Assembly (NCBI GenBank): GCA_009927375.1
Contig: RFNE01000201.1
Location: 1-32,864 of the forward strand
Direction: 5' to 3'
Length of the DNA: 32,864 nucleotides
Origin: Actinomycetota bacterium
GTDB lineage: Bacteria > Actinomycetota > Acidimicrobiia > Acidimicrobiales > Ilumatobacteraceae
Under the pieces are notes generated by a model. That model ran no database searches and was not told the DNA's origin. It worked only from the letters and a program-made list of their open reading frames with translations. How positions within the stretch are numbered: position 1 is the stretch's first letter; each line of letters starts with the position of its first letter. A program made the position numbers and the translations under genes. Below, in pieces: positions 8,485 through 30,733 of this stretch.

Positions 8485-9711
8485 ATGAGATCGTCTCGGC
8501 GTCCGTGGTCGCACTTTGCCATTCTCGCCTTCAACATCGGCATCGCAGGCCTGCTCGTCGTCGTTGGTGTCGGCATGCTGTGGGCAGGTCAGCGCTTGAG
8601 CACGCGTCAGGTAGTGAGCATCGGACGTGACCAAAACGCGACACCGGTAGACGACGCCAACATCACTCCGTCAGAGGAATGGAACCTCACGGAGGGCGAT
8701 CTCCAGGCGAAGAACTTCCTGCTCACCGGGTCGGACAACGGAGGTTGCGTCGACCCAGACTCCCCATACGCGGGCGCATTCGGCGACCGAACGAGCTTTG
8801 GTGAGCGAAGCGACACGATCATGATCATTCGCGTCAATCCACTCGACAACCAAGCGGCCTTCCTTTCGTTTCCCCGTGACCTTTGGGTCAAGATCGCTGG
8901 GTCGACGCGATCGAACCGCATCAACACGGCCTTCGAAAGAAAGAATCCGAATCGCCTCATCAACACCATCTACGAGAACTTCGGCATCCCAATCGACCAT
9001 TACGTCAACATCGACTTCTGCGCCTTCAAGGAAATCGTTGATGCGGTGGGTGGCGTGAGCGTGCCCTTCGCATACGAGACTCGCGATCAGAAGACAGGGT
9101 TGTATGTTCCGCGAGCAATGTGCTTCCAGTTTTCCGGCGACCACGCACTCGCCTACGTGCGGTCACGATCCGGCTATTCGTACTTCGACCCCGCCAAGGG
9201 ATCGTGGGTCAAGGACGGCACGTCGGATCTCGGTCGCATCAGCAGACAACAAGACTTCATCCGCCGCGCGATGCAACGCGCGCTCGACAAGGGCTCGAGT
9301 AGCCCTCGAGTCGCCAACGAACTCTTGAACACCGGGTTGCGTAACGTCATCACCGACGACCAACTTTCCGCACTCTCCATGCTCCAATTGGCGCAGGCGA
9401 TGCGCAACATCAATACCTCCAAGATTCCCTCGTACACGATCAGCAGTGCGGGTCAAATGATCGGCGAAGAAGCAGTTCTCATCCCGAAGATTCAAAACGA
9501 CACCATGCGCCAGGTCCTCGCGCTGTTCCAAGGCAAGGCGAGCTTCGGCACGTCGAGCGCAGGCGATGAGGGAGCGCTTGCCCCAAATGCGATCTCCCTG
9601 CGCGCATTCACGACTCGCTCCTCCGCGTCACCGTCGACAACAGTTCCCGCGGTTGCGCCGGAACAAGACACGCTCGGGATCGTGCCCCCAGACGATCCGT
9701 CCTGCCGCTAG
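8485..9711 (+). CDS. LCP (LytR-CpsA-Psr) family cell-envelope glycopolymer ligase
   Basis: N-terminal TM anchor, then NFLLTGSDN...ERSDTIMIIRVNP...FPRDLWV...INTAF and DHALAYVRSR, typical of the LCP catalytic domain. Confidence 0.85.
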   Translation: MRSSRRPWSHFAILAFNIGIAGLLVVVGVGMLWAGQRLSTRQVVSIGRDQNATPVDDANITPSEEWNLTEGDLQAKNFLLTGSDNGGCVDPDSPYAGAFGDRTSFGERSDTIMIIRVNPLDNQAAFLSFPRDLWVKIAGSTRSNRINTAFERKNPNRLINTIYENFGIPIDHYVNIDFCAFKEIVDAVGGVSVPFAYETRDQKTGLYVPRAMCFQFSGDHALAYVRSRSGYSYFDPAKGSWVKDGTSDLGRISRQQDFIRRAMQRALDKGSSSPRVANELLNTGLRNVITDDQLSALSMLQLAQAMRNINTSKIPSYTISSAGQMIGEEAVLIPKIQNDTMRQVLALFQGKASFGTSSAGDEGALAPNAISLRAFTTRSSASPSTTVPAVAPEQDTLGIVPPDDPSCR

Positions 9712-10451
9712 CTGAGAACGCCGAGCATCGCCTCGGGAATGTCCGACGGCCCGCTCACCGTCGCAAACCGCGCACCAACTCGTTGAGAGAACGCTCGCGC
9801 TTCGTCACTGTCATCCGAATGCGCAATGATGACAAGCTCGTCAAGGCACCGCGCGGATTCCTCGGCCGCCTGCGCGGACGTTGAGCGACAATCCGAAAGC
9901 AAGATCGTGATCCTTCGCTGCGCCGTCGATCGGGCGAGTTGCGAAGCTGACTCCCGGAGTGCATCTGCGAGATTCGTCGTACCAAACCCACGTAGCGACA
10001 GCACCGAGGTGACGAGTTGGTCAACGGGAACCTCGTCCGTTTGCGATTTGGCCACTCCAACGTCTCCGCCGAATACCAAGATGCTGTAGTCCGTCGGCTT
10101 GCGGTGGGCAACGGCTGCGGCGGCAAGTGCAGCCGTTGCGAGCGGGGCTCCACCCATCGAACCGCTCCTGTCGATCACAAGACTGATGGCGTGGGTGTTC
10201 TTCGTCCACACGCGATGACGAATCTCATCAATTTCGAGCACACCGGTGGCGCGATGACTCACGAGCGCATCAGTACTCGCATCGATGTCGAATTCGCCAG
10301 AAGAATCACTCGTTCGTTGGCTGACGACGCGTCCGACGCCACGTCGCGTCGGACCCACACGTGAACTCACCTCGATGAAGATTCGTCCGGCCAGTGTTCG
10401 TGCCAACTCACTCAAGGACGGATCGGTCGCAGCAACGAGGTCCGCGAGCAT
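9708..10451 (-). CDS. VWA (von Willebrand factor A) domain protein, partner of the upstream MoxR ATPase
   Basis: MIDAS motif VIDRSGSMGG, then GTTNLADAL and LLSDCRST. The first ATG/GTG/TTG is at 10451, but the frame stays open with protein-like sequence up to 10676 (see findings). Confidence 0.8.
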   Translation of the reverse strand: MLADLVAATDPSLSELARTLAGRIFIEVSSRVGPTRRGVGRVVSQRTSDSSGEFDIDASTDALVSHRATGVLEIDEIRHRVWTKNTHAISLVIDRSGSMGGAPLATAALAAAAVAHRKPTDYSILVFGGDVGVAKSQTDEVPVDQLVTSVLSLRGFGTTNLADALRESASQLARSTAQRRITILLSDCRSTSAQAAEESARCLDELVIIAHSDDSDEARAFSQRVGARFATVSGPSDIPEAMLGVLS

Positions 10452-10618
10452 CGACAGCGCCTCGTCTGGTTCACTCGCAAGTTTCTGTGCGAATGCATCC
10501 TCGTCGAGGACGCCGACCTCGGGCGAGATCTCTTCGAAACCGTCGTGGCCCTCGAGTTCGCGTCGCGAAACGGTGCGCTTGGATGCGCGTGCCGCTGGAG
10601 AGGATGTTGGCGGTCGCT

Positions 10619-11563
10619 CTAGCGACGACTTGGCGCCCCCGTCGGGGCGCTCGCTTTTCCCGAACGGTCTCGTTCGTCAGCCGCAAATTGACGATCCCAC
10701 AGTTCTTCGATGATTGACTCCGCGCTGCGTGTGACGCCCTCACGCACTCTCACGCGACCGCTCAACGACACAACGGCGGCGTCCTTCCCACATGCATCTC
10801 GAGTTGCGGCCGATCCGCGCATTGCAACCAATTGATCAGCGACCATCACCGTGTCGATTGCACCACGAACCGATGAGCCCACGCGAAGTTCAGGGTGGGA
10901 CCTCGTTGCCCTTGCAACCTCGACGACACCGCGAACCCACGCCGAGTCGAAATCCTTCACCGATCCGCGCGTTGCGTGCTCGACGATTGCCACCTCGTCG
11001 TCGAGTGACTGGTACGTCATTGCAACACGGCACACACGATCGGAGATCGCACTCGAAATGCGCGCTGTTCCCACGGCGTCGAAAGGGTTCATCGCTGCAA
11101 CCAGCCGGAATCCATCACCCGCAGTGACCTTCCCGTATCGCGGGATGGTGATCTCTCCCTCGCTCATCACCGTGACGAGAACGTTCAGGGTCTCCTCAGG
11201 AATGCGGTTGATCTCTTCGACGTACAAAAGCGCACCTTCGCGCAACGCCTGGACGAGTGGACCGTCGACGAACGAACTTGCTGCGTACCCCTCGTCAAGC
11301 ACTCGGGCAGGATCGAAGTTTCCGATCAGTCGACTCGGTGTGAGTTCGGCATTGCCCTCGACGAACACGAAGGACACGCCGAACGACTGAGCAACTGACC
11401 GCAAGAGCGTCGACTTGCCGGTTCCGGGAGGGCCCTCGAGAACGACGTGGCGTCGTGCGCCGAGCGCAGCGACGACCAGCTCAACTTCTCGCGTGCGGCC
11501 AACGACACCCTGTGCCGCGGCCGATGCTCGTGAACCTACGTCGCCCGAGCGCTCCTTAGGCAT
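10619..11563 (-). CDS. MoxR-family AAA+ ATPase
   Basis: Walker A GPPGTGKS, Walker B LLYVEEINR, and the MoxR-like core VVGRTREVELVVAAL...LVAAMNP. I chose ATG 11563 (MPKERSGD), which overlaps the last codons of the upstream ADH by 8 nt (ATGCCTAA). The longest ORF starts at 11590. Confidence 0.88.
   Translation of the reverse strand: MPKERSGDVGSRASAAAQGVVGRTREVELVVAALGARRHVVLEGPPGTGKSTLLRSVAQSFGVSFVFVEGNAELTPSRLIGNFDPARVLDEGYAASSFVDGPLVQALREGALLYVEEINRIPEETLNVLVTVMSEGEITIPRYGKVTAGDGFRLVAAMNPFDAVGTARISSAISDRVCRVAMTYQSLDDEVAIVEHATRGSVKDFDSAWVRGVVEVARATRSHPELRVGSSVRGAIDTVMVADQLVAMRGSAATRDACGKDAAVVSLSGRVRVREGVTRSAESIIEELWDRQFAADERDRSGKASAPTGAPSRR
10633..10661 (-). promoter_or_regulatory. Candidate -1 programmed ribosomal frameshift cassette (slippery heptamer + hairpin) at the MoxR/VWA junction
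   Basis: The minus-strand RNA reads G_GGA_AAA in the MoxR zero frame (10661-10655). A 4-nt spacer follows, then GCGCCCC-GACG-GGGGCGC (10650-10633), a 7-bp all-GC stem with a tetraloop. The cassette lies inside the 55-nt window where both frames are open. Confidence 0.25.
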
Positions 11564-12668
11564 ATTTGATGACGCCGCGAATGTTCTCACCTTCGCGCAT
11601 CGCGCGGTAGCCCTCGTTGACTTCCTCGAGTGCGTACTCGCGCGTCACAAGTCCGTTGAGGTCGAGCTGACCTTCACGGAACAAGCCGAGCAACTTCGGA
11701 ATGTCGGAGCGGGGGTTTCCCGAACCGAACAACGAGCCAACCAGTTGCTTTTCCGACAATGTGAGGTCGAGCAGGCTGATGTTGGCCGTCATCTCCATCA
11801 GAGGATGGATGTTCGTGACGACGACACGGCCGCCCTTCGACACTGCGGCCATTGCCTCGCCGATCATCGCACCGTTGCCGACGCCCATCGTCATGATGAC
11901 CTTGTTGGCCATCGTTCCCCACGTCAACTGCTGCACCATCGGGATCGCCTCTGCGAGCGACGCGGCGGTATGTGTTGCACCGAACTCCATCGCCTTTTCG
12001 CGCTTGAACTCGATCGGGTCGACCGCAATGATTCGCTTCGCACCCGCAAGACGTGCGCCCTGCACCGCGTTCGCACCAATGCCACCAATGCCGACGACCA
12101 CAACGGTGTCGCCGGGCTTGACTTCGGCGGCGTACACGCTCGATCCCCAACCGGTGACGACACCGCAACCGAGCAAGCACGCGCGATCAAGCGGAATGTC
12201 CTTCTCGATCTTGATGCAGCTTGCTTCATTCACGACGGTGTGCTCGGCAAAGGTGCCGAGCAGGCACATGATGCCAAGGTCCTTGCCGTCCTTGTGGTGA
12301 CGAGCGGTCTGATCGGAGATCTGCAGACCCGTAGCGAGGAACTGTCCCATGTCGCAGATGTTCTGGTGACCGGTGCTGCAGCTCGGGCAACGACCACACG
12401 AGGGAATGAAACCGAATACGACGTGGTCGCCGGGCTGCAACCACGTGACACTCGAACCGACTTGCTGAACGACACCGGCACCCTCATGCCCTCCGATGAT
12501 CGGAAATGCGGCAGGCAAGTCGCCAGTGACGAGGTGCTCGTCGCTATGGCACATTCCGGAGGCAACGAGCTTGACGAGTACTTCGTTCGGACCGGGAGGA
12601 TCGAGGTCGATTTCTTCAATGCTCCACGGAGCGTTGAGTTCCCACAACACGGCTGCTTTCGTCTTCAC
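11556..12668 (-). CDS. Zn-dependent MDR alcohol dehydrogenase of the mycofactocin-associated (NDMA-dependent, Rxyl_3153-like) type
   Basis: KTKAAVLWELNAPWSIEEIDLDPPGPNEVLVKLVASGMCHSDEH, GHEGAG, structural-Zn CGRCPSCSTGHQNIC, Rossmann GIGGIG. I chose GTG 12668, preceded by GAGGTGGGGG (SD-like), giving the family-typical MKTKAAVLW N-terminus. The longest ORF extends to TTG 12731. Confidence 0.85.
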   Translation of the reverse strand: MKTKAAVLWELNAPWSIEEIDLDPPGPNEVLVKLVASGMCHSDEHLVTGDLPAAFPIIGGHEGAGVVQQVGSSVTWLQPGDHVVFGFIPSCGRCPSCSTGHQNICDMGQFLATGLQISDQTARHHKDGKDLGIMCLLGTFAEHTVVNEASCIKIEKDIPLDRACLLGCGVVTGWGSSVYAAEVKPGDTVVVVGIGGIGANAVQGARLAGAKRIIAVDPIEFKREKAMEFGATHTAASLAEAIPMVQQLTWGTMANKVIMTMGVGNGAMIGEAMAAVSKGGRVVVTNIHPLMEMTANISLLDLTLSEKQLVGSLFGSGNPRSDIPKLLGLFREGQLDLNGLVTREYALEEVNEGYRAMREGENIRGVIKYA

Positions 12669-12784
12669 AATGACCCCCACCTCTGCGCAGTCGCCCACGC
12701 CGTTGTCCTGACTGGGCATATTGTTGCCCAAACCCCTCCAGCGACGCTACCCCGAGGCGCGCCCCATGATTACTGTGGAGTGCA

Positions 12785-12925
12785 ATGGAACCAACAGCAG
12801 CACTCGAGCAGGACCGCATCAGCGACGCTGAGGCCACCGGCACCCGCGATTCGGCACAGCCGCAGATCGTTGAAGAACTTCTCATCGAGGAGATCTCCAT
12901 CGACGGCATGTGCGGCGTGTACTGA
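12785..12925 (+). CDS. mftA: Mycofactocin precursor peptide MftA (46 aa)
   Basis: Absent from the ORF track (under 60 aa). Manual translation: MEPTAALEQDRISDAEATGTRDSAQPQIVEELLIEEISIDGMCGVY-stop. It has the canonical C-terminal IDGMCGVY core. GGAG lies 5 nt upstream of the ATG, and the gene sits immediately upstream of mftB/mftC. Confidence 0.9.
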   Translation: MEPTAALEQDRISDAEATGTRDSAQPQIVEELLIEEISIDGMCGVY

Positions 12926-12943
12926 TCCGCACGACCTTCCACG

Positions 12944-13210
12944 ATGACCCTCACGCTCGACTCGGCGTGTGAACTGCACCCCGACGTCGCCTTGCGACCA
13001 GAGCCCTTCGGCGCACTCGCGTATCACTACGGCAACCGTCGCCTGATCTTCCTCAAGCACCCGGACGTGGTCGCCGTCGTTCGTGATGCCGCAAACCATC
13101 GCTCGCTGCGCGAAGTACTTGTCGAAAACGGCATCGCTGAGTCGCGTTGGCCGTCGTTCATTTCTGCTCTCACGTCGCTCGCGCAGTCCGAGGTGATTCG
13201 TGTCCACTAG
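12944..13210 (+). CDS. mftB: Mycofactocin biosynthesis chaperone MftB (PqqD-like RiPP recognition element)
   Basis: 88-aa ORF with LHPDVALRPEPFGALAYHYGNRRLIFLK, the typical MftB signature. It lies between mftA and the radical SAM gene. Confidence 0.88.
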   Translation: MTLTLDSACELHPDVALRPEPFGALAYHYGNRRLIFLKHPDVVAVVRDAANHRSLREVLVENGIAESRWPSFISALTSLAQSEVIRVH

Positions 13211-14357
13211 TTCGCTCGCTGCACAGATGAAGCAGGGGCTCGACGCCCCCATCTGTCTCACGTGGGAATTGACGTATGCCTGCAATCTCCAGTGCGTCCA
13301 TTGCCTCTCATCGAGTGGCACCCGAGACCCGCGCGAGCTGACGACCGAGCAGGCCAAGGCAGTGCTCGACGAACTTCGTGACCTGCAGGTGTTCTACATC
13401 AACATCGGTGGTGGTGAGCCGATGGTGCGACGCGACTTCTTCGAGTTGCTCGAACATGCGGAGCACTGCAACATCGGCGTCAAGTTCTCCACCAACGGCG
13501 CGTTCATCACTCCAGAGAACGCCCGACGGTTGGCCGCGATGAACTACCTCGACATCCAGATCAGCCTTGACGGCGCAAATCGCGCGACGAACGATCGAGT
13601 TCGTGGCGAAGGTTCGTACGACATTGCCCTTCGTGCAATGGACAACCTGCGGGATGCGAGTTTTGGTCGGTTCAAGATCTCGGTCGTGATGACGCGAGAA
13701 AATGTCTCCCAACTGGATGAATTCAAGGCGCTTGCCGACTCTTACGGAGCCCAACTGCGCATCACCCGATTACGACCCGCTGGTCGCGGCGCAGACACGT
13801 GGAATGAGCTCCACCCGACTGCGGCCCAACAGCGAGTGATCTACGACTGGCTCATGCACCATGGAGAAGACGTCTTGACCGGAGACTCGTTCTTCCACTT
13901 GAACGCATTCGGTGACGCACTCCCCGGACTCAACTTGTGCGGCGCGGGTCGCGTGGTCTGTCTCATCGATCCGCTCGGTGATGTCTATGCATGCCCGTTC
14001 GTCATCCATGATGAGTTCAAGGCGGGCAGCGTGCTCGAAGATGGAGGATTCACGCACGTCTGGAAATCGAGCGACCTCTTCACCTCATTGCGCGAGCCCG
14101 AATCGCCTGGAGCATGCGCATCGTGCGGGAGCTACGACGCATGCCAAGGCGGATGCATGGCAGCGAAGTTCTTCACCGGGCTTCCCCTCGATGGTCCAGA
14201 CCCCGAATGCGTGAGCGGGCACGGTGAGCACGCACTCTCGTCCGCTGGTGCTGCCCCTCGCCCATCGATGGATCACTCGAAGCCAGTGCGCCTCACCGTG
14301 AAGGCTCGCCGAAGTCCAGTTCTCGTCACTCACCACAGCGGAGGGAGTCCATCATGA
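13200..14357 (+). CDS. mftC: Mycofactocin radical SAM maturase MftC (SPASM domain)
   Basis: GLDAPICLTWELTYACNLQCVHC (CxxxCxxC radical SAM cluster), plus the C-terminal SPASM cysteines CGAGR...YACPF...CASCGSYDACQGGCMAAKFFTGLPLDGPDPEC. GTG start overlaps mftB by 11 nt. Confidence 0.93.
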   Translation: MSTSSLAAQMKQGLDAPICLTWELTYACNLQCVHCLSSSGTRDPRELTTEQAKAVLDELRDLQVFYINIGGGEPMVRRDFFELLEHAEHCNIGVKFSTNGAFITPENARRLAAMNYLDIQISLDGANRATNDRVRGEGSYDIALRAMDNLRDASFGRFKISVVMTRENVSQLDEFKALADSYGAQLRITRLRPAGRGADTWNELHPTAAQQRVIYDWLMHHGEDVLTGDSFFHLNAFGDALPGLNLCGAGRVVCLIDPLGDVYACPFVIHDEFKAGSVLEDGGFTHVWKSSDLFTSLREPESPGACASCGSYDACQGGCMAAKFFTGLPLDGPDPECVSGHGEHALSSAGAAPRPSMDHSKPVRLTVKARRSPVLVTHHSGGSPS

Positions 14358-15037
14358 ACGGTGTCTCGACAGGTGGTGTCATCGCCCTTCTCCTCCTTGG
14401 ATATTTCCTCGGAACGTTCCCGAGTGCACTGATCGTCGCGAAGCGCGGTGGCATCGACGTCACCGCCGAGGGTTCGGGAAATCCGGGCACGTCGAACGTC
14501 GTGCGCCTACTCGGCTGGCGTTATGGCGCAGTCGTGATGATTCTCGACATCGGCAAGGGTGCGCTCGCAGTTGGCGCTGCGGCGATCGTTGCCGGCGATC
14601 GCGTGACCCAACTCGGATATCTCTGCGGCTATGCGGCGGTCATCGGACATACGTTCCCAATCACGCGCAAGTTCGTCGGTGGTAAGGGTGTCGCGGCTGG
14701 TGGCGGTGCGATGTTCGTGCTCTACCCACTCATGAGCCTCGTGTTGTGCAGTTCGTGGTTCGTCATCAGGAAGGTCACCGGGAAGTCCTCGGTTGCATCG
14801 CTCGTGATCACCATCTGCGTTCCGTTGTACATCGTGTTCTTCCGCGACAATCGCTGGGAACTCCTCGATGCTCTCGGTCTCGTCGTGTTGATCATCATCC
14901 GACACACGGCGAACATCAAGCGACTTGGTCGCGCGAGGAAAACGCGGCCTAAGGCCCGAGGGCGTCCATGGCCACCTTCATCACCGACTTCTTCGACTCG
15001 CTCAAGGAGTTCTCGTCTTCGCCGTGGTTCTACGTGA
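14354..15037 (+). CDS. plsY: Acyl-phosphate:glycerol-3-phosphate acyltransferase PlsY
   Basis: GSGNPGTSNV, DIGKGALAV, GHTFPI, GGKGVAAGGG and IIRHTANIKRL match the PlsY conserved blocks. ATGA overlap with the mftC stop, and a strong SD GGAGGGAG 6 nt upstream. The Arg/Ser/Pro-rich 3' tail overlaps dedA by 70 nt. Confidence 0.85.
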   Translation: MNGVSTGGVIALLLLGYFLGTFPSALIVAKRGGIDVTAEGSGNPGTSNVVRLLGWRYGAVVMILDIGKGALAVGAAAIVAGDRVTQLGYLCGYAAVIGHTFPITRKFVGGKGVAAGGGAMFVLYPLMSLVLCSSWFVIRKVTGKSSVASLVITICVPLYIVFFRDNRWELLDALGLVVLIIIRHTANIKRLGRARKTRPKARGRPWPPSSPTSSTRSRSSRLRRGST

Positions 15038-15588
15038 TCATCTACGTGATCGCGGTGCTGGACTCCGTCTTCCCCGTCGTACCGAGCGAAACACTCGTGA
15101 TCATCGGCGGAGTGTCCGCGGGTCTCGGTGATCTCTCGATCACGTTCGTCGTGCTCGCCGCTGGTCTCGGAGCATTCACCGGAGACAACATGAGTTACCT
15201 GATCGGACGCAGAGCGAGTGGAGCGATCACGCGAAGATACGAACGAACGGAGAAGGGCCGGCGACGGCTCCAAACGGTCATCAACCAAATCCACGAACGC
15301 GGCGGCTTGCTGCTCATCACCGCGCGATTCATCCCTGGAGGGCGGACGATTCTCACGTTGTCGTGTGGCATTACCCGTCAAGAACGTCGGTGGTACATGG
15401 GCTGGATCGCTGCCGCAGCAACGATCTGGGCGCTCTACGCATCACTACTCGGCTTCATCGGTGGCAAGACGTTCGAGGAGAATCACACACTCGCGTTCGT
15501 GGTCGCATTTGTTGCTGCCGTTTCGGTGACGGTGGTCATCGAAATCATTCGCGCGGTCCTGAAGAAGATCCGCAAGCGAACGCCGTGA
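14968..15588 (+). CDS. DedA / VTT-domain family membrane protein
   Basis: FYVIIYVIAVLDSVFPVVPSETLVIIGG...GDNMSYLIGRR...LLITARFIPGGRT, the typical DedA re-entrant loop signatures. Several TM helices. Confidence 0.85.
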   Translation: MATFITDFFDSLKEFSSSPWFYVIIYVIAVLDSVFPVVPSETLVIIGGVSAGLGDLSITFVVLAAGLGAFTGDNMSYLIGRRASGAITRRYERTEKGRRRLQTVINQIHERGGLLLITARFIPGGRTILTLSCGITRQERRWYMGWIAAAATIWALYASLLGFIGGKTFEENHTLAFVVAFVAAVSVTVVIEIIRAVLKKIRKRTP

Positions 15589-16271
15589 AGTTTGCAACGC
15601 GTCGACTTCGTGAGTTGACGTCTGCGAAAGTGTCCTCGATCGAGCGACCGATCCTTGCGATTCCCGTCGGATCGTGCGAGCAGCACGGACCTCACCTCCC
15701 ACTCGGTACCGACACGATCATCGCCGAGGCGTTGTGTGACGCCCTCGCATCACTCAATGCTCGGATCGTGGTCAGTCCATCGCTCACGATCACTTCGAGC
15801 GGTGAACACGCAGGCTTTCCTGGCACGCTCTCGATCGGAGGTCCGGCGACGTCATCGACGATCATCGAGCTCGTGCGCTCTGCCGACTGGGCAACGGGTG
15901 TCGTACTCGTGAACGGTCACGGTGGGAACGCTTCACCAGTGAGTGATGCCGTTGCGATACTTCGAGCGGAGTCGCGAGTCGTCACCGACTGGTGGCCACG
16001 CATCGACGGTGGTGACGCGCATGCCGGGCACATTGAAACCTCACTCATGTTGCACCTCGCAGCCGATCTCGTGGACATGGAGCGGGCGGAAGTCGGCAAC
16101 ACCCAACCACTTCGTGAGATTGCCGACTCACTTCGCTCCGGCGGTCTCCGAGCAGTCTCGTCGAATGGAGTTCTCGGCGATCCCCGACATGCATCACGAG
16201 AAGTCGGTGAGAAGTTGATGGCGGACCTGGTCAGTCAACTCAACCACCACGTCGCGCTGCATCACCCATGA
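15585..16271 (+). CDS. mftE: Mycofactocin precursor peptidase MftE (creatininase-fold)
   Basis: PILAIPVGSCEQHGPHLPLGTD...SSGEHAGFPGTLSI...VNGHGGN...GDAHAGHIETS. GTG 15585 overlaps the dedA stop (GTGA). The track ORF 15363..16271 has an implausible N-terminal extension inside dedA. Confidence 0.88.
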   Translation: MKFATRRLRELTSAKVSSIERPILAIPVGSCEQHGPHLPLGTDTIIAEALCDALASLNARIVVSPSLTITSSGEHAGFPGTLSIGGPATSSTIIELVRSADWATGVVLVNGHGGNASPVSDAVAILRAESRVVTDWWPRIDGGDAHAGHIETSLMLHLAADLVDMERAEVGNTQPLREIADSLRSGGLRAVSSNGVLGDPRHASREVGEKLMADLVSQLNHHVALHHP

Positions 16272-17656
16272 CTCCAGATCCGTCGTTCGTTTGCGATTCG
16301 TCATGGCATCGCTACTCGGACGGCACCACCCTCGTTGCCGGATCTCCGCTTGCGGTGTTTTCCCTCAGCGAAGCCGGACGTGACGTCGCTCGAGCACTCG
16401 AAGCTGGTGAGCCGCTCCCCGACTTCCATCGACCACTGACTTCTCGACTAGCAGCAGCTGGTGCAATTCACCCTCTTGCGTCCGAACTCGAAGAGTCGCT
16501 CGAGACATTGCTGACAGTCGTCATTCCCGCGCACGTTTCAGATGACGCCGGAATCGCGCGACTGACACGTTTAATCGAGGAACTCAGCGTGCAGTGTTCA
16601 GTCATCGTCGTCGATGATGCGTCGCCGCAGGCGTTCATGATTCCCAATGCCGCAAAGATCGTCAGGTTGGACACGAACCGCGGACCAGCTGTAGCACGAA
16701 ACGCAGGACTCGAAATGGTGACCACGCCGTTCGTGGCGTTCATCGACAGTGATGTCACCGAGTGTGGTTCAGCCCTGCCCCTCCTCGTTGCAACATGTTC
16801 ACTGGACGGTGTCGGACTCGCCGCACCACGGGTTGCAAGCCGACCAGGAGTAACGCGACTTGCTCGATACGAGGAGCGATTCTCTCCGCTCGATCTCGGT
16901 TCGGAACCCGGCCGCGTCGCTCCTGGCTCACGAATCTCCTACGTCCCGTCGGCGATGTGGGTCGTGAGGACGGAGGTTGCAAAGTCCCTCGGCGGCTTTG
17001 ATGCCGAGATGCGAGTCGGTGAGGACGTCGACTTTGTCTGGCGACTCGTCCGCGCAGGTTCGACGGCGAGATACGAGCCACGTGCCGTCGTGCACCACGA
17101 TCCCCGTCCGACGCTCAGAGCGCTCATGAGACAGCGATTCTTCTACGGAGGCTCCGTCGGTCCGCTCTCCATTCGACATCCATCGCTCCTTCGACCGCTC
17201 AAGACGAGCTGGCATTCGGTTGCGCTGTGGGTGTTCTTCTTCGCCGGTCTTGCACCGATCAGTGCGCTACTCGGGATCTACACGTTCGTCGGTCTCGCTC
17301 GCCGACTTCGCCACCTCGACCACGGAGTTCGCGAAGCATTGCGTCTCGTCGTTCGTGGGCATTGGTCCGCACTTTCCTCGATCGTCCGTGCCCTTCGACG
17401 CGAGTGGATACCCCTTACGCTCCTGTGCCTTATGTTCGGTGGTTACCTCGGTGCGCTCGCGCTCGCCGTCTTGTTCATTCCATCCATCGTGGACTATTTC
17501 CGTGGCTCCAAACGGCTCGATCCGGTCACGTTTGTTGTCCTGCGCATCCTCGACGATGCGTCATATGGAATGGGTGCGGTCACGTCATGCGTCCGCAACC
17601 GAACGATCAGACCGGTTGTACCTGATCTGCGGACGTGGCGCGCAAACGTGCACTGA
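16268..17656 (+). CDS. mftF: Mycofactocin glycosyltransferase MftF (GT2 domain plus C-terminal TM region)
   Basis: VVIPAHVSDD...VIVVDDASP...RGPAVARNAGL...FIDSDV...GEDVDFVWR, followed by hydrophobic helices. ATGA overlap with the mftE stop. Confidence 0.88.
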   Translation: MTPDPSFVCDSSWHRYSDGTTLVAGSPLAVFSLSEAGRDVARALEAGEPLPDFHRPLTSRLAAAGAIHPLASELEESLETLLTVVIPAHVSDDAGIARLTRLIEELSVQCSVIVVDDASPQAFMIPNAAKIVRLDTNRGPAVARNAGLEMVTTPFVAFIDSDVTECGSALPLLVATCSLDGVGLAAPRVASRPGVTRLARYEERFSPLDLGSEPGRVAPGSRISYVPSAMWVVRTEVAKSLGGFDAEMRVGEDVDFVWRLVRAGSTARYEPRAVVHHDPRPTLRALMRQRFFYGGSVGPLSIRHPSLLRPLKTSWHSVALWVFFFAGLAPISALLGIYTFVGLARRLRHLDHGVREALRLVVRGHWSALSSIVRALRREWIPLTLLCLMFGGYLGALALAVLFIPSIVDYFRGSKRLDPVTFVVLRILDDASYGMGAVTSCVRNRTIRPVVPDLRTWRANVH

Positions 17657-18119
17657 TGTCGTTGCACTCCTCGCACACCGAGGCTGGAATCACACCGAGA
17701 CGCATCAGGATCGCAAACATCTTGCAGCCGAGACAGAATGCAAACGCTGCTTCAAGGAACGCTGCGAACACCAATCCAACGATCACTAGGCGTGCAGCAA
17801 TGACCGCGTCCTGCACATAGAGCACACTCGCCACGATTGACATCGCGGCGCCGACTCCCTGTGCAAATCGCTTCGGTGGACCAGGAACGAACTTGTGCTG
17901 GATGTTCAAACGCGGGGTAATCACCTGAGTGGCAAGTCGACCAAGCGGGCTCAGCGTTGGGCCCGTCAAGACTCGTGCGACGAATCCATACGTGAGCGCT
18001 GCAAGGATCCAGCCGTTTCCAGTTGCTGCGAACGCAAGTCCGAGGACGACAGCGCCGGTTGCAACGATTCGAGCACTTGTTTCATTGACGGGATTGGGGA
18101 AACTGAACAGTCCTGGCAT
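17607..18119 (-). CDS. DUF4395-family membrane protein
   Basis: FPNPVNETSARIVA...LSPLGRLA...PGPPKRFAQGVGA...EAAFAFCLGCKMF matches my recollection of DUF4395. The 3' end overlaps the 3' end of mftF by 50 nt (convergent). Confidence 0.7.
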   Translation of the reverse strand: MPGLFSFPNPVNETSARIVATGAVVLGLAFAATGNGWILAALTYGFVARVLTGPTLSPLGRLATQVITPRLNIQHKFVPGPPKRFAQGVGAAMSIVASVLYVQDAVIAARLVIVGLVFAAFLEAAFAFCLGCKMFAILMRLGVIPASVCEECNDISARLRATSADQVQPV

Positions 18120-27837: not shown

Positions 27838-29866
<2,029 letters not shown>

Positions 29867-29870
<4 letters not shown>

Positions 29871-30733
29871 TTGGACACCTTTGCAACCAGCCACCAATGG
29901 CTCCGATTCGTCCGCTTGAGAATTCCGACGGTCACGCCGGCATGTCGCACGGATCGTTGACGACGGTGAGAATGCAGGATTCTGACGTCGGTGAGGTATC
30001 TCAGTTCACCCCGCTGACTCAAGTGGTCGAGAACTTCGTCCGGAGACAATCGGTTCGCCTGCCACCCGAATCTCGTGGCCCATCGTTTGGTGGACAGTTG
30101 TTTGCCTACCAAGGGCAGTCGCCACAGCAAGCGAACGAGCACACCGAGCGGAATAAGAACGACATCGAGGGGCACCCAGGTTCGGTAATTGAGCATGATC
30201 ACCCCACCACTTCTTGTGACTCGAATCGCCTCGGATGTCAGCGCGAGGGCATCGTCATGCTGGCAATGCTGCAGCACGATGTAGGAAAACACCTGGTCGA
30301 CACTGTCGGTCGAAACGGCAAGCGTTCGGCCATCGGCAACGTGCACGGTAGACAGGCGTTCAGGTCGTCCATGGAGCGCAATCGTTTGATGGCAACGCTC
30401 GAGGAATGCGGCATCCACATCCGTCGCGATCACCCGCGCACAGAGGTTCGTGAAGGCAGCTGTCATACGACCAATTCCACTTCCGATCTCAAGGAGCGTT
30501 GACGTTGCGAGTCGGTCAGTCGACAAGCCAAAGTGCCTCATGAACCGGCGCACTTCTTCGTCGCCCGTTCTCACGAAATCCGCAAGTGTCAGACTCTTCC
30601 CGGTTTCGTTGTTGAACACCCATCCAGTCTCACGGACGACGTCATCGGCAGTTCCACCACCCTCGGTCTTCGTGCCGGCCGCGCGCCACGGAGTGAACTG
30701 CGTGCGCCAGTTCTTCGGTGACTGCGACGACAT
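29867..30733 (-). CDS. Class I SAM-dependent methyltransferase with a hydrophobic C-terminal segment
   Basis: Motif I LLEIGSGIGRMT, VFSYIVLQH, and a hydrophobic stretch VVLIPLGVLVRLLW. Substrate unknown. Confidence 0.7.

Follow-up and report, generated by a model that had tools for sequence, protein, structure and literature searches.

A compact mycofactocin operon with plsY and dedA but no mftD in freshwater Acidimicrobiia, and its probable descent from an OYE/ETF-type cluster

Nearly all knowledge of mycofactocin derives from mycobacteria, and a locus from an uncultured freshwater member of the Ilumatobacteraceae (Acidimicrobiia) raises the question of how the cofactor would be matured where mftD is missing from the cluster and two other genes, plsY (acyl-phosphate:glycerol-3-phosphate acyltransferase) and dedA (DedA-family membrane protein), stand between mftC and mftE. 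The locus lies on contig RFNE01000201.1 of assembly GCA_009927375.1, and the whole stretch analyzed, 32,864 nt, is called the window below. An earlier interpretation, the sequence-only reading, took plsY and dedA to be wired into the slot of mftD and left three options: (a) mftD is elsewhere in the genome, (b) the product stops at or diverges from the intermediate 3-amino-5-[(p-hydroxyphenyl)methyl]-4,4-dimethyl-2-pyrrolidinone (AHDP), or (c) maturation is coupled to a membrane or lipid step. The account that we favor, with a probability of about 0.55, is that of a streamlined maturation operon derived from the OYE/ETF type of mycofactocin cluster, with an ordinary PlsY, an mftD gene elsewhere in the genome and the standard pathway.

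The open reading frame (ORF) listing and the NCBIfam and Pfam scans place seven co-directional, tightly packed genes at 12785-17656, in the order mftA-mftB-mftC-plsY-dedA-mftE-mftF (Table 1). Identities were scored as NCBIfam bits against the curated cut-off, with Pfam in addition, and all seven genes lie above their cut-offs, in agreement with the operon first proposed. Five of the six core mft genes are present as curated equivalogs, and mftD is not in the cluster. Most of the junctions proposed earlier also hold: an 18-nt gap between mftA and mftB, an 11-nt overlap between mftB and mftC (which depends on preferring GTG 13200 to ATG 13227 as the mftC start), an ATGA overlap between mftC and plsY with the strong Shine-Dalgarno sequence GGAGGGAG in front, a GTGA overlap that sets the mftE start on the dedA stop, and an ATGA overlap between mftE and mftF. 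The exception is a 70-nt overlap of plsY and dedA, an artefact of a 1-nt deletion discussed below. A signal scan of the mftA-mftF unit found neither a sigma-70-like promoter nor a plus-strand terminator-like site within it, as expected of a unit said to have no room for either, and the window yielded no match in Rfam or tRNA scans. We propose that the unit would be a working maturation operon, read as one transcript from upstream of mftA with translational coupling at most junctions.

Comparison across related genomes showed that this gene order is conserved in a clade. The same order is found in the metagenome or metagenome-assembled genome (MAG) contigs L003-L008, whose PlsY proteins are 64-73% identical to that of the window. 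In a map of 80 species-representative genome loci, made by tblastn against a reference panel, the exact layout recurs in the GTDB species representatives L010, L011, L013, L016 and L018, and two further loci (L012, L015) are consistent with it but end at a contig edge. In all, at least seven genomes at species level share the layout. The PlsY homologues and the loci retrieved through MftC carry names such as Ilumatobacteraceae, Acidimicrobiaceae, Acidimicrobiales or Acidimicrobiia, and many come from lakes, reservoirs and rivers. Variants occur: dedA is missing from L009, L020 and L036, giving plsY-mftE-mftF (e.g. L009:10890-13478), and mftE is missing from L019, where plsY-dedA-mftF leaves no room for it (L019:11201-13794). 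Judging by these four loci, mft accessory genes are mobile within the clade. We also observed that MAG records labelled Bifidobacterium, Gammaproteobacteria or Amycolatopsis (L026, L055, L032, L067) match Acidimicrobiia arrangements and identities; either these labels are wrong or the contigs are misbinned, probably. The sequence-only reading knew of no described variant with this layout, and the literature that we searched likewise did not link mycofactocin to plsY, glycerol-3-phosphate acyltransferase, DedA, Acidimicrobiia, Acidimicrobiales or Ilumatobacter. The layout is thus not described in that literature, and its most likely account is an ordinary one.

The origin of the arrangement is best seen in L031, an Ilumatobacteraceae MAG in which a minus-strand alcohol dehydrogenase (ADH) gene is followed, on one strand and with short gaps, by mftB, mftC, OYE1, plsY, OYE2, dedA, etfA, fixC, etfB and mftF. 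The families were assigned by NCBIfam (TIGR03996, 642 bits; TIGR03997, 935; NF038209, 351; TIGR04503, 172; TIGR03965, 357), and L017 and L043 agree with L031 as far as their contigs extend. A DedA-EtfA fusion in L043, suggested by the ORF caller, was rejected: the DedA match lies in a different frame and Pfam shows only ETF domains. Without plsY and dedA, the order in L031 is that of Amycolatopsis sp. GM8 (L088), L082 and L054. We refer to this as the OYE/ETF-type cluster, defined by mftABC, the FadH/OYE oxidoreductases TIGR03996 and TIGR03997, mft_etfA (NF038209), a FixC-like gene, mft_etfB (TIGR04503) and mftF/mftE; its members include Amycolatopsis sp. GM8, A. tucumanensis (L075) and the Acidimicrobiia loci L054, L071 and L081. 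None of the ten OYE/ETF-type loci has mftD within 10 kb, the Actinomycetes examples included.

These loci bear directly on the idea that plsY and dedA took the slot of mftD, which did not hold up. In L031, L017 and L043 both genes sit inside an OYE/ETF-type cluster, and that cluster is free of mftD even in Amycolatopsis (L075, L088), so their positions do not correspond to an mftD slot. The TIGR03996 and TIGR03997 oxidoreductases and mft_etfA/etfB, present in the same three sister loci, are absent from between mftC and mftE/mftF in the window, which makes the window a derivative rather than a member of the OYE/ETF type. The gene orders suggest that the window operon is a streamlined descendant of such a cluster. 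In Acidimicrobiia, plsY would have come to sit after mftC or OYE1, and dedA after OYE2 in one sub-lineage; the clade of the window would then have lost OYE1, OYE2, etfA, fixC and etfB, leaving mftABC-plsY-dedA-mftE-mftF. By this scheme mftD would never have been part of this type of cluster.

The link between mftC and plsY reaches well beyond the window's own clade. Of the 80 loci, 33 have a PlsY homologue no more than 200 nt downstream of mftC, and 11 more have one at a distance of 1.8-5.3 kb downstream. Among the 59 MAG-derived loci whose sequence runs on for 2 kb or more past mftC, 44 have plsY there, compared to none of the 13 named Actinomycetes loci. In most plsY-bearing genomes the next gene encodes "mycofactocin system FadH/OYE oxidoreductase 1" (TIGR03996, 700 bits in L065), followed by SDR and FadD-like genes. 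The PlsY subclades are the MftC subclades, with identities between subclades of 40-55% for PlsY and 72-85% for MftC. Since the one set mirrors the other, the pattern points to joint vertical inheritance of plsY and mftC, as judged from protein sequences, and not to repeated capture.

The PlsY protein itself has the features of an ordinary enzyme. It aligns end to end with Aquifex aeolicus PlsY (5XJ5; E 2e-22) and keeps the motifs GSGNPGTSN, DxxKG, GHTFP..GGKGVATGGG and RHxxNIxRL, on which grounds it looks like a regular acyl-phosphate:glycerol-3-phosphate acyltransferase; we predict it to be a genuine, catalytically intact phospholipid acyltransferase. DedA is less well defined. Its DedA/UptA matches of 48-49 bits fall far below the equivalog cut-offs (48.7 vs. 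300 and 41.8 vs. 250 for UptA), and with about 42-55 bits against UptA cut-offs of 250-300 it is a generic family member and not an UptA equivalog.

These observations allow option (c) to be weighed, in which PlsY, and in part DedA, would act directly in the mycofactocin biology of Acidimicrobiia and selection would hold plsY beside mftC. The glycosylated cofactor might, for example, be acylated or tethered to the membrane, or a lipid carrier might be handled for a membrane-bound MftF. Such coupling would account for plsY staying next to mftC or OYE1 in those 44 MAG-derived loci while the flanks change, and for the overlap of mftC and plsY behind a strong Shine-Dalgarno sequence in the window. 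It would also suit the lipid theme among the neighbors in sister loci (FadH/OYE enzymes, a FadD-like ligase, ETF and FixC) and the response of mycobacterial MftR to long-chain acyl-CoAs (PMC8728441). However, none of the glycerol-3-phosphate and acyl-phosphate motifs of a normal PlsY is missing from the protein, which bears no mark of a specialized paralogue; plsY is missing near mftC in the other 15 MAG-derived loci with room for it, e.g. L055, L066 and L038 (the last otherwise like the plsY-bearing L024 and L026), and from all the Actinomycetes mft loci; and the loci without dedA keep both mftE and mftF. The absence of dedA from three loci and of plsY from 15 argues against a required biosynthetic role, and an obligatory form of option (c) is weakened accordingly. 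MftF-type GT2 enzymes are, moreover, thought to use nucleotide sugars directly. We regard direct coupling as improbable. On the account we favor, plsY would have been inherited along with mftC and would most likely be the cell's ordinary PlsY, kept through co-transcription or co-regulation with lipid-oriented genes; plsY and dedA would share a transcript within a lipid-oriented regulon, and PlsY would not be a substitute for MftD.

The absence of mftD from the window, as stated in the sequence-only reading, was confirmed. No FMN_dh/MftD-like gene (the FMN-dependent alpha-hydroxyacid-oxidase type) was found among all sizeable ORFs of the window, and tblastn searches for remnants with four MftD queries at E <= 10 returned only noise (E >= 0.4). 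The scanned ORFs of the window also contain no TetR regulator. More widely, none of about 67 MAG-derived loci has MftD within 10 kb of mftC, compared to 9 of the 13 Actinomycetes loci. Profile and sequence searches nevertheless showed that Acidimicrobiia MftD exists, in many entries named Acidimicrobiales and in the isolate Acidiferrimicrobium sp. IK. A stand-alone mftD occurs in L089, L091 (Acidiferrimicrobium sp. IK), L096 and L097, and no further mft gene is present within 10 kb to either side (L089, L091) or on the whole 6.5-7.2 kb contigs (L096, L097). Its surroundings recur in L089 (10001-11188), L096 (3283-4470) and L097 (225-1397), where mftD is followed by F420H2_quin_red (minus strand), a small ORF, HAD and Beta_elim_lyase (minus strand); on the upstream side, L089 and L096 have PRK and Meth_synt_2, while genes for cobalamin biosynthesis lie on the downstream side in L089 and L097. 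In L091, mftD adjoins a divergent TetR gene, possibly mftR. A second context is a compact cluster with mftD between mftF and the ADH gene (L093-L095). Because an unlinked mftD is normal in Acidimicrobiia, option (a) is favored: mftD is most likely elsewhere in the genome, as is the case in other members of the class.

Several observations weigh against this account. The adjacency of mftC and plsY has survived many rearrangements on both sides, beyond what would be expected of a neutral passenger, which could mean a direct functional tie. In L064 and L079, two Acidimicrobiia MAGs from freshwater, a cluster of the L093 type is precisely lacking mftD and a GNAT gene from between the ADH gene and mftF. 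MftD is not universal among species with mft genes (Haft 2011, PMC3023750). Finally, none of the eight candidates and ten clusters of MftD examined comes from an assembly with this layout or with mftC-plsY; all belong to other assemblies or to bulk metagenome records.

The last three points, together with the lack of MftD near mftC in the MAG-derived loci, could also be read as true loss, with streamlined freshwater lineages having no mftD anywhere and either another enzyme making the keto-amide or the end product being a glycosylated molecule of the AHDP kind that has some other role. The L064 and L079 clusters and Haft's report keep this idea in play. On the other side, stand-alone MftD is common in Acidimicrobiia, which makes its local absence the usual state and no indication of loss, and MftE, MftF and the mycofactocin-family ADH have been kept, while a redox carrier requires the keto-amide made by MftD (PMC11778925). 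The window also holds no candidate substitute. The pyridoxal phosphate (PLP)-barrel gene behind mftF was considered for that role and rejected: in a profile search it matches alanine racemases (3kw3, E 1.6e-10), with an invariant PLP-lysine motif VVKGNGYG, and as a single sequence it gave no PDB match. It is probably, from these matches, a short divergent alanine racemase kept through general synteny; it lies behind mftF in all clade members with contigs long enough to show it. We consider true loss unlikely, but deserving of a real share of the doubt. L064 and L079 are also of note in their own right (L064:1831-8544 and L079:1431-7363, compared with L093:761-8382; ADH, mftF on the minus strand, then mftA-B-C-E-SDR), as a second, independent type of mft cluster without mftD.

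A combined version, in which freshwater Ilumatobacteraceae lack any MftD and plsY has been retained beside mftC throughout the class because mycofactocin is truly tied to the synthesis of membrane lipids, would imply a second, MftD-independent route to the cofactor or a second form of it. Such a tie might consist in a cofactor that is acylated or associated with lipid, or in another enzyme that makes the redox-active center. We hold this combination to be quite unlikely, and return to the preferred account of an ordinary PlsY and an unlinked mftD.

The 70-nt overlap between plsY and dedA is present in the letters of the window and arises from a 1-nt deletion (TTT to TT) at about 14925, which puts the last 37 or so plsY codons out of frame; the intact allele would end at about 14952. 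Neither a 98.9%-identical ENA contig (L001) nor a 91%-identical one (L100) has the deletion; both encode a PlsY of 199 aa with its stop 15 nt before the dedA ATG, and an exact-match scan of JGI metagenomes found one copy of the intact allele and none of the deleted one. Even the intact junction is too short for a promoter or terminator, and the claim of tight linkage therefore stands. Two more breaks in frame occur elsewhere in the window: the alanine-racemase-like gene has lost a single T at about 18963, again unlike the same two relatives, and the gene of a PALP enzyme is divided at about 29330 between the ORFs 29292-29897 and 28910-29359. Three such disruptions in 33 kb might suggest a decaying locus, with the operon, or plsY in particular, becoming a pseudogene in this strain. 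Yet the two comparable ones are both losses of a single T in short T runs that the 98.9% and 91% relatives do not share, a pattern typical of errors in assembly; in plsY, only the tail beyond the last conserved motif is altered; every mft gene is intact and above its cut-off; and the deleted allele had no match in the metagenomes. Decay is thus extremely improbable, and the comparison of alleles indicates that the window most likely carries assembly indels of the homopolymer type.

Table 1. Genes of the mycofactocin operon and its flanks in the window, with profile scores in bits against the cut-off where given.
Feature	Position	Strand	Evidence and remarks
VWA-domain protein	9708..10451	-	Pfam VWA_CoxE, VWA_2, VWA; syntenic in relatives
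MoxR-type AAA ATPase	10619..11590	-	NCBIfam AAA matches; Pfam bpMoxR + AAA_5 in L003-L008 orthologues
NDMA-dependent (nicotinoprotein) Zn alcohol dehydrogenase, Rxyl_3153-type	11556..12731	-	TIGR03989 567 bits vs. 440; divergent from mftA
mftA, precursor peptide	12785..12925	+	46 aa, C-terminus IDGMCGVY; TIGR03969 54.9 bits vs. 25; Pfam MftA in L001 gene call
mftB, chaperone	12944..13210	+	TIGR03967 93.9 bits vs. 33
mftC, radical SAM/SPASM maturase	13200..14357	+	TIGR03962 612.6 bits vs. 265; alternative start ATG 13227
plsY, acyl-phosphate:glycerol-3-phosphate acyltransferase	14354..15037	+	TIGR00023 142.6 bits vs. 137.2; PF02660 145 bits vs. 24
DedA-family (VTT domain) membrane protein	14968..15588	+	PF09335 62 bits vs. 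33.9
mftE, peptidase, creatininase family	15585..16271	+	TIGR03964 254.4 bits vs. 172; GTG start at 15585, same start in L001 gene call
mftF, GT2 glycosyltransferase	16268..17656	+	TIGR03965 352.6 bits vs. 280
DUF4395 membrane protein, convergent	17607..18119	-	PF14340 119 bits; marks operon end
Alanine-racemase-like (PLP-barrel) gene, ~316 aa	18192-19147 (L001:7428-8378)		follows mftF

Upstream of mftA, the window has an ADH-MoxR-VWA trio (9708-12731) that is kept across the clade. The ADH, which probably begins further downstream than its longest ORF would have it, is 75-82% identical across related loci and belongs to the TIGR03989-type family that Haft tied to mycofactocin (PMC3023750), and the operon thus adjoins a mycofactocin-linked nicotinoprotein dehydrogenase partner. 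The presence of this well-conserved ADH with MoxR and VWA next to the operon argues for a redox-active product, in line with a pathway that would run from MftC/MftB through MftE and MftD to MftF as in mycobacteria, and that would serve the adjacent dehydrogenase. A similar pairing of MoxR and VWA genes presumably lies beside mycobacterial methanol dehydrogenase, and by this analogy the trio suggests that the alcohol dehydrogenase would need an activating chaperone. Many sister loci have two tandem paralogues of the mycofactocin-family ADH.

At the other end, the 3′ ends of mftF and the convergent DUF4395 gene overlap by 50 nt (17607-17656), so that a terminator would not fit between them. L006-L008 have this convergent arrangement too, with a 41-nt overlap, as do L010, L013 and L016. 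The contigs with PlsY proteins 64-73% identical share a wider neighborhood with the window, made up of cysS, valS, LCP, VWA, MoxR, ADH, the mft genes, the alanine-racemase-like gene, DUF418, UDG and a sulfatase. Another recurrent neighbor of mftA-C in Acidimicrobiia is a minus-strand gene for a HelD/HelR-like RNA-polymerase recycling ATPase, usually just upstream and sometimes between mftC and plsY (L021, L023-L029, L034, L037, L038, L040, L041, L045-L047, L052, L053, L056, L058, L061, L062, L065, L066, L068, L072).

What the locus adds is that a compact mft operon, apparently derived from the OYE/ETF-type cluster, is present in Acidimicrobiia that are abundant in freshwater and uncultured, that mftD is habitually unlinked in Acidimicrobiia, and that mftC has been accompanied by a gene for a phospholipid acyltransferase in much of the class. 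If this linkage is only regulatory, it would still hint at a physiological setting in lipid and fatty-acid metabolism for mycofactocin outside mycobacteria, and the control of MftR by acyl-CoA would agree with that. If MftD were truly absent, the present four-step pathway would be incomplete for an entire lineage. In annotation pipelines, an mft cluster should not count as defective on account of a locally absent mftD.

Set beside known systems, the operon shares with the canonical mftABCDEF cluster of Mycobacterium tuberculosis (Rv0691A-Rv0696) and M. smegmatis an MftA ending in GVY and MftB, MftC, MftE and MftF, all as curated equivalogs, as well as an adjacent mycofactocin-family nicotinoprotein ADH. 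It differs in that mftD, mftR and mftG are all missing from the 33 kb, in the placing of plsY and dedA between mftC and mftE, and in a gene order that comes from another type of cluster. That other type, the OYE/ETF cluster, has in common with it the relative order mftABC ... mftE/mftF with no mftD inside, and L031, L017 and L043 link the two forms; the window has shed the five OYE, etf and fixC genes and retains the Acidimicrobiia-specific inserts plsY and dedA. Compared to the Aquifex enzyme 5XJ5, the PlsY of the window has the conserved motifs and a similar size and scores narrowly above the TIGR00023 cut-off, but its gene lies inside a cofactor-maturation operon. The DedA protein resembles the undecaprenyl-phosphate transporter UptA in its VTT domain and its length of about 200 aa, but it falls below the cut-offs of that family and its gene is absent from some close relatives in which the operon is otherwise the same.

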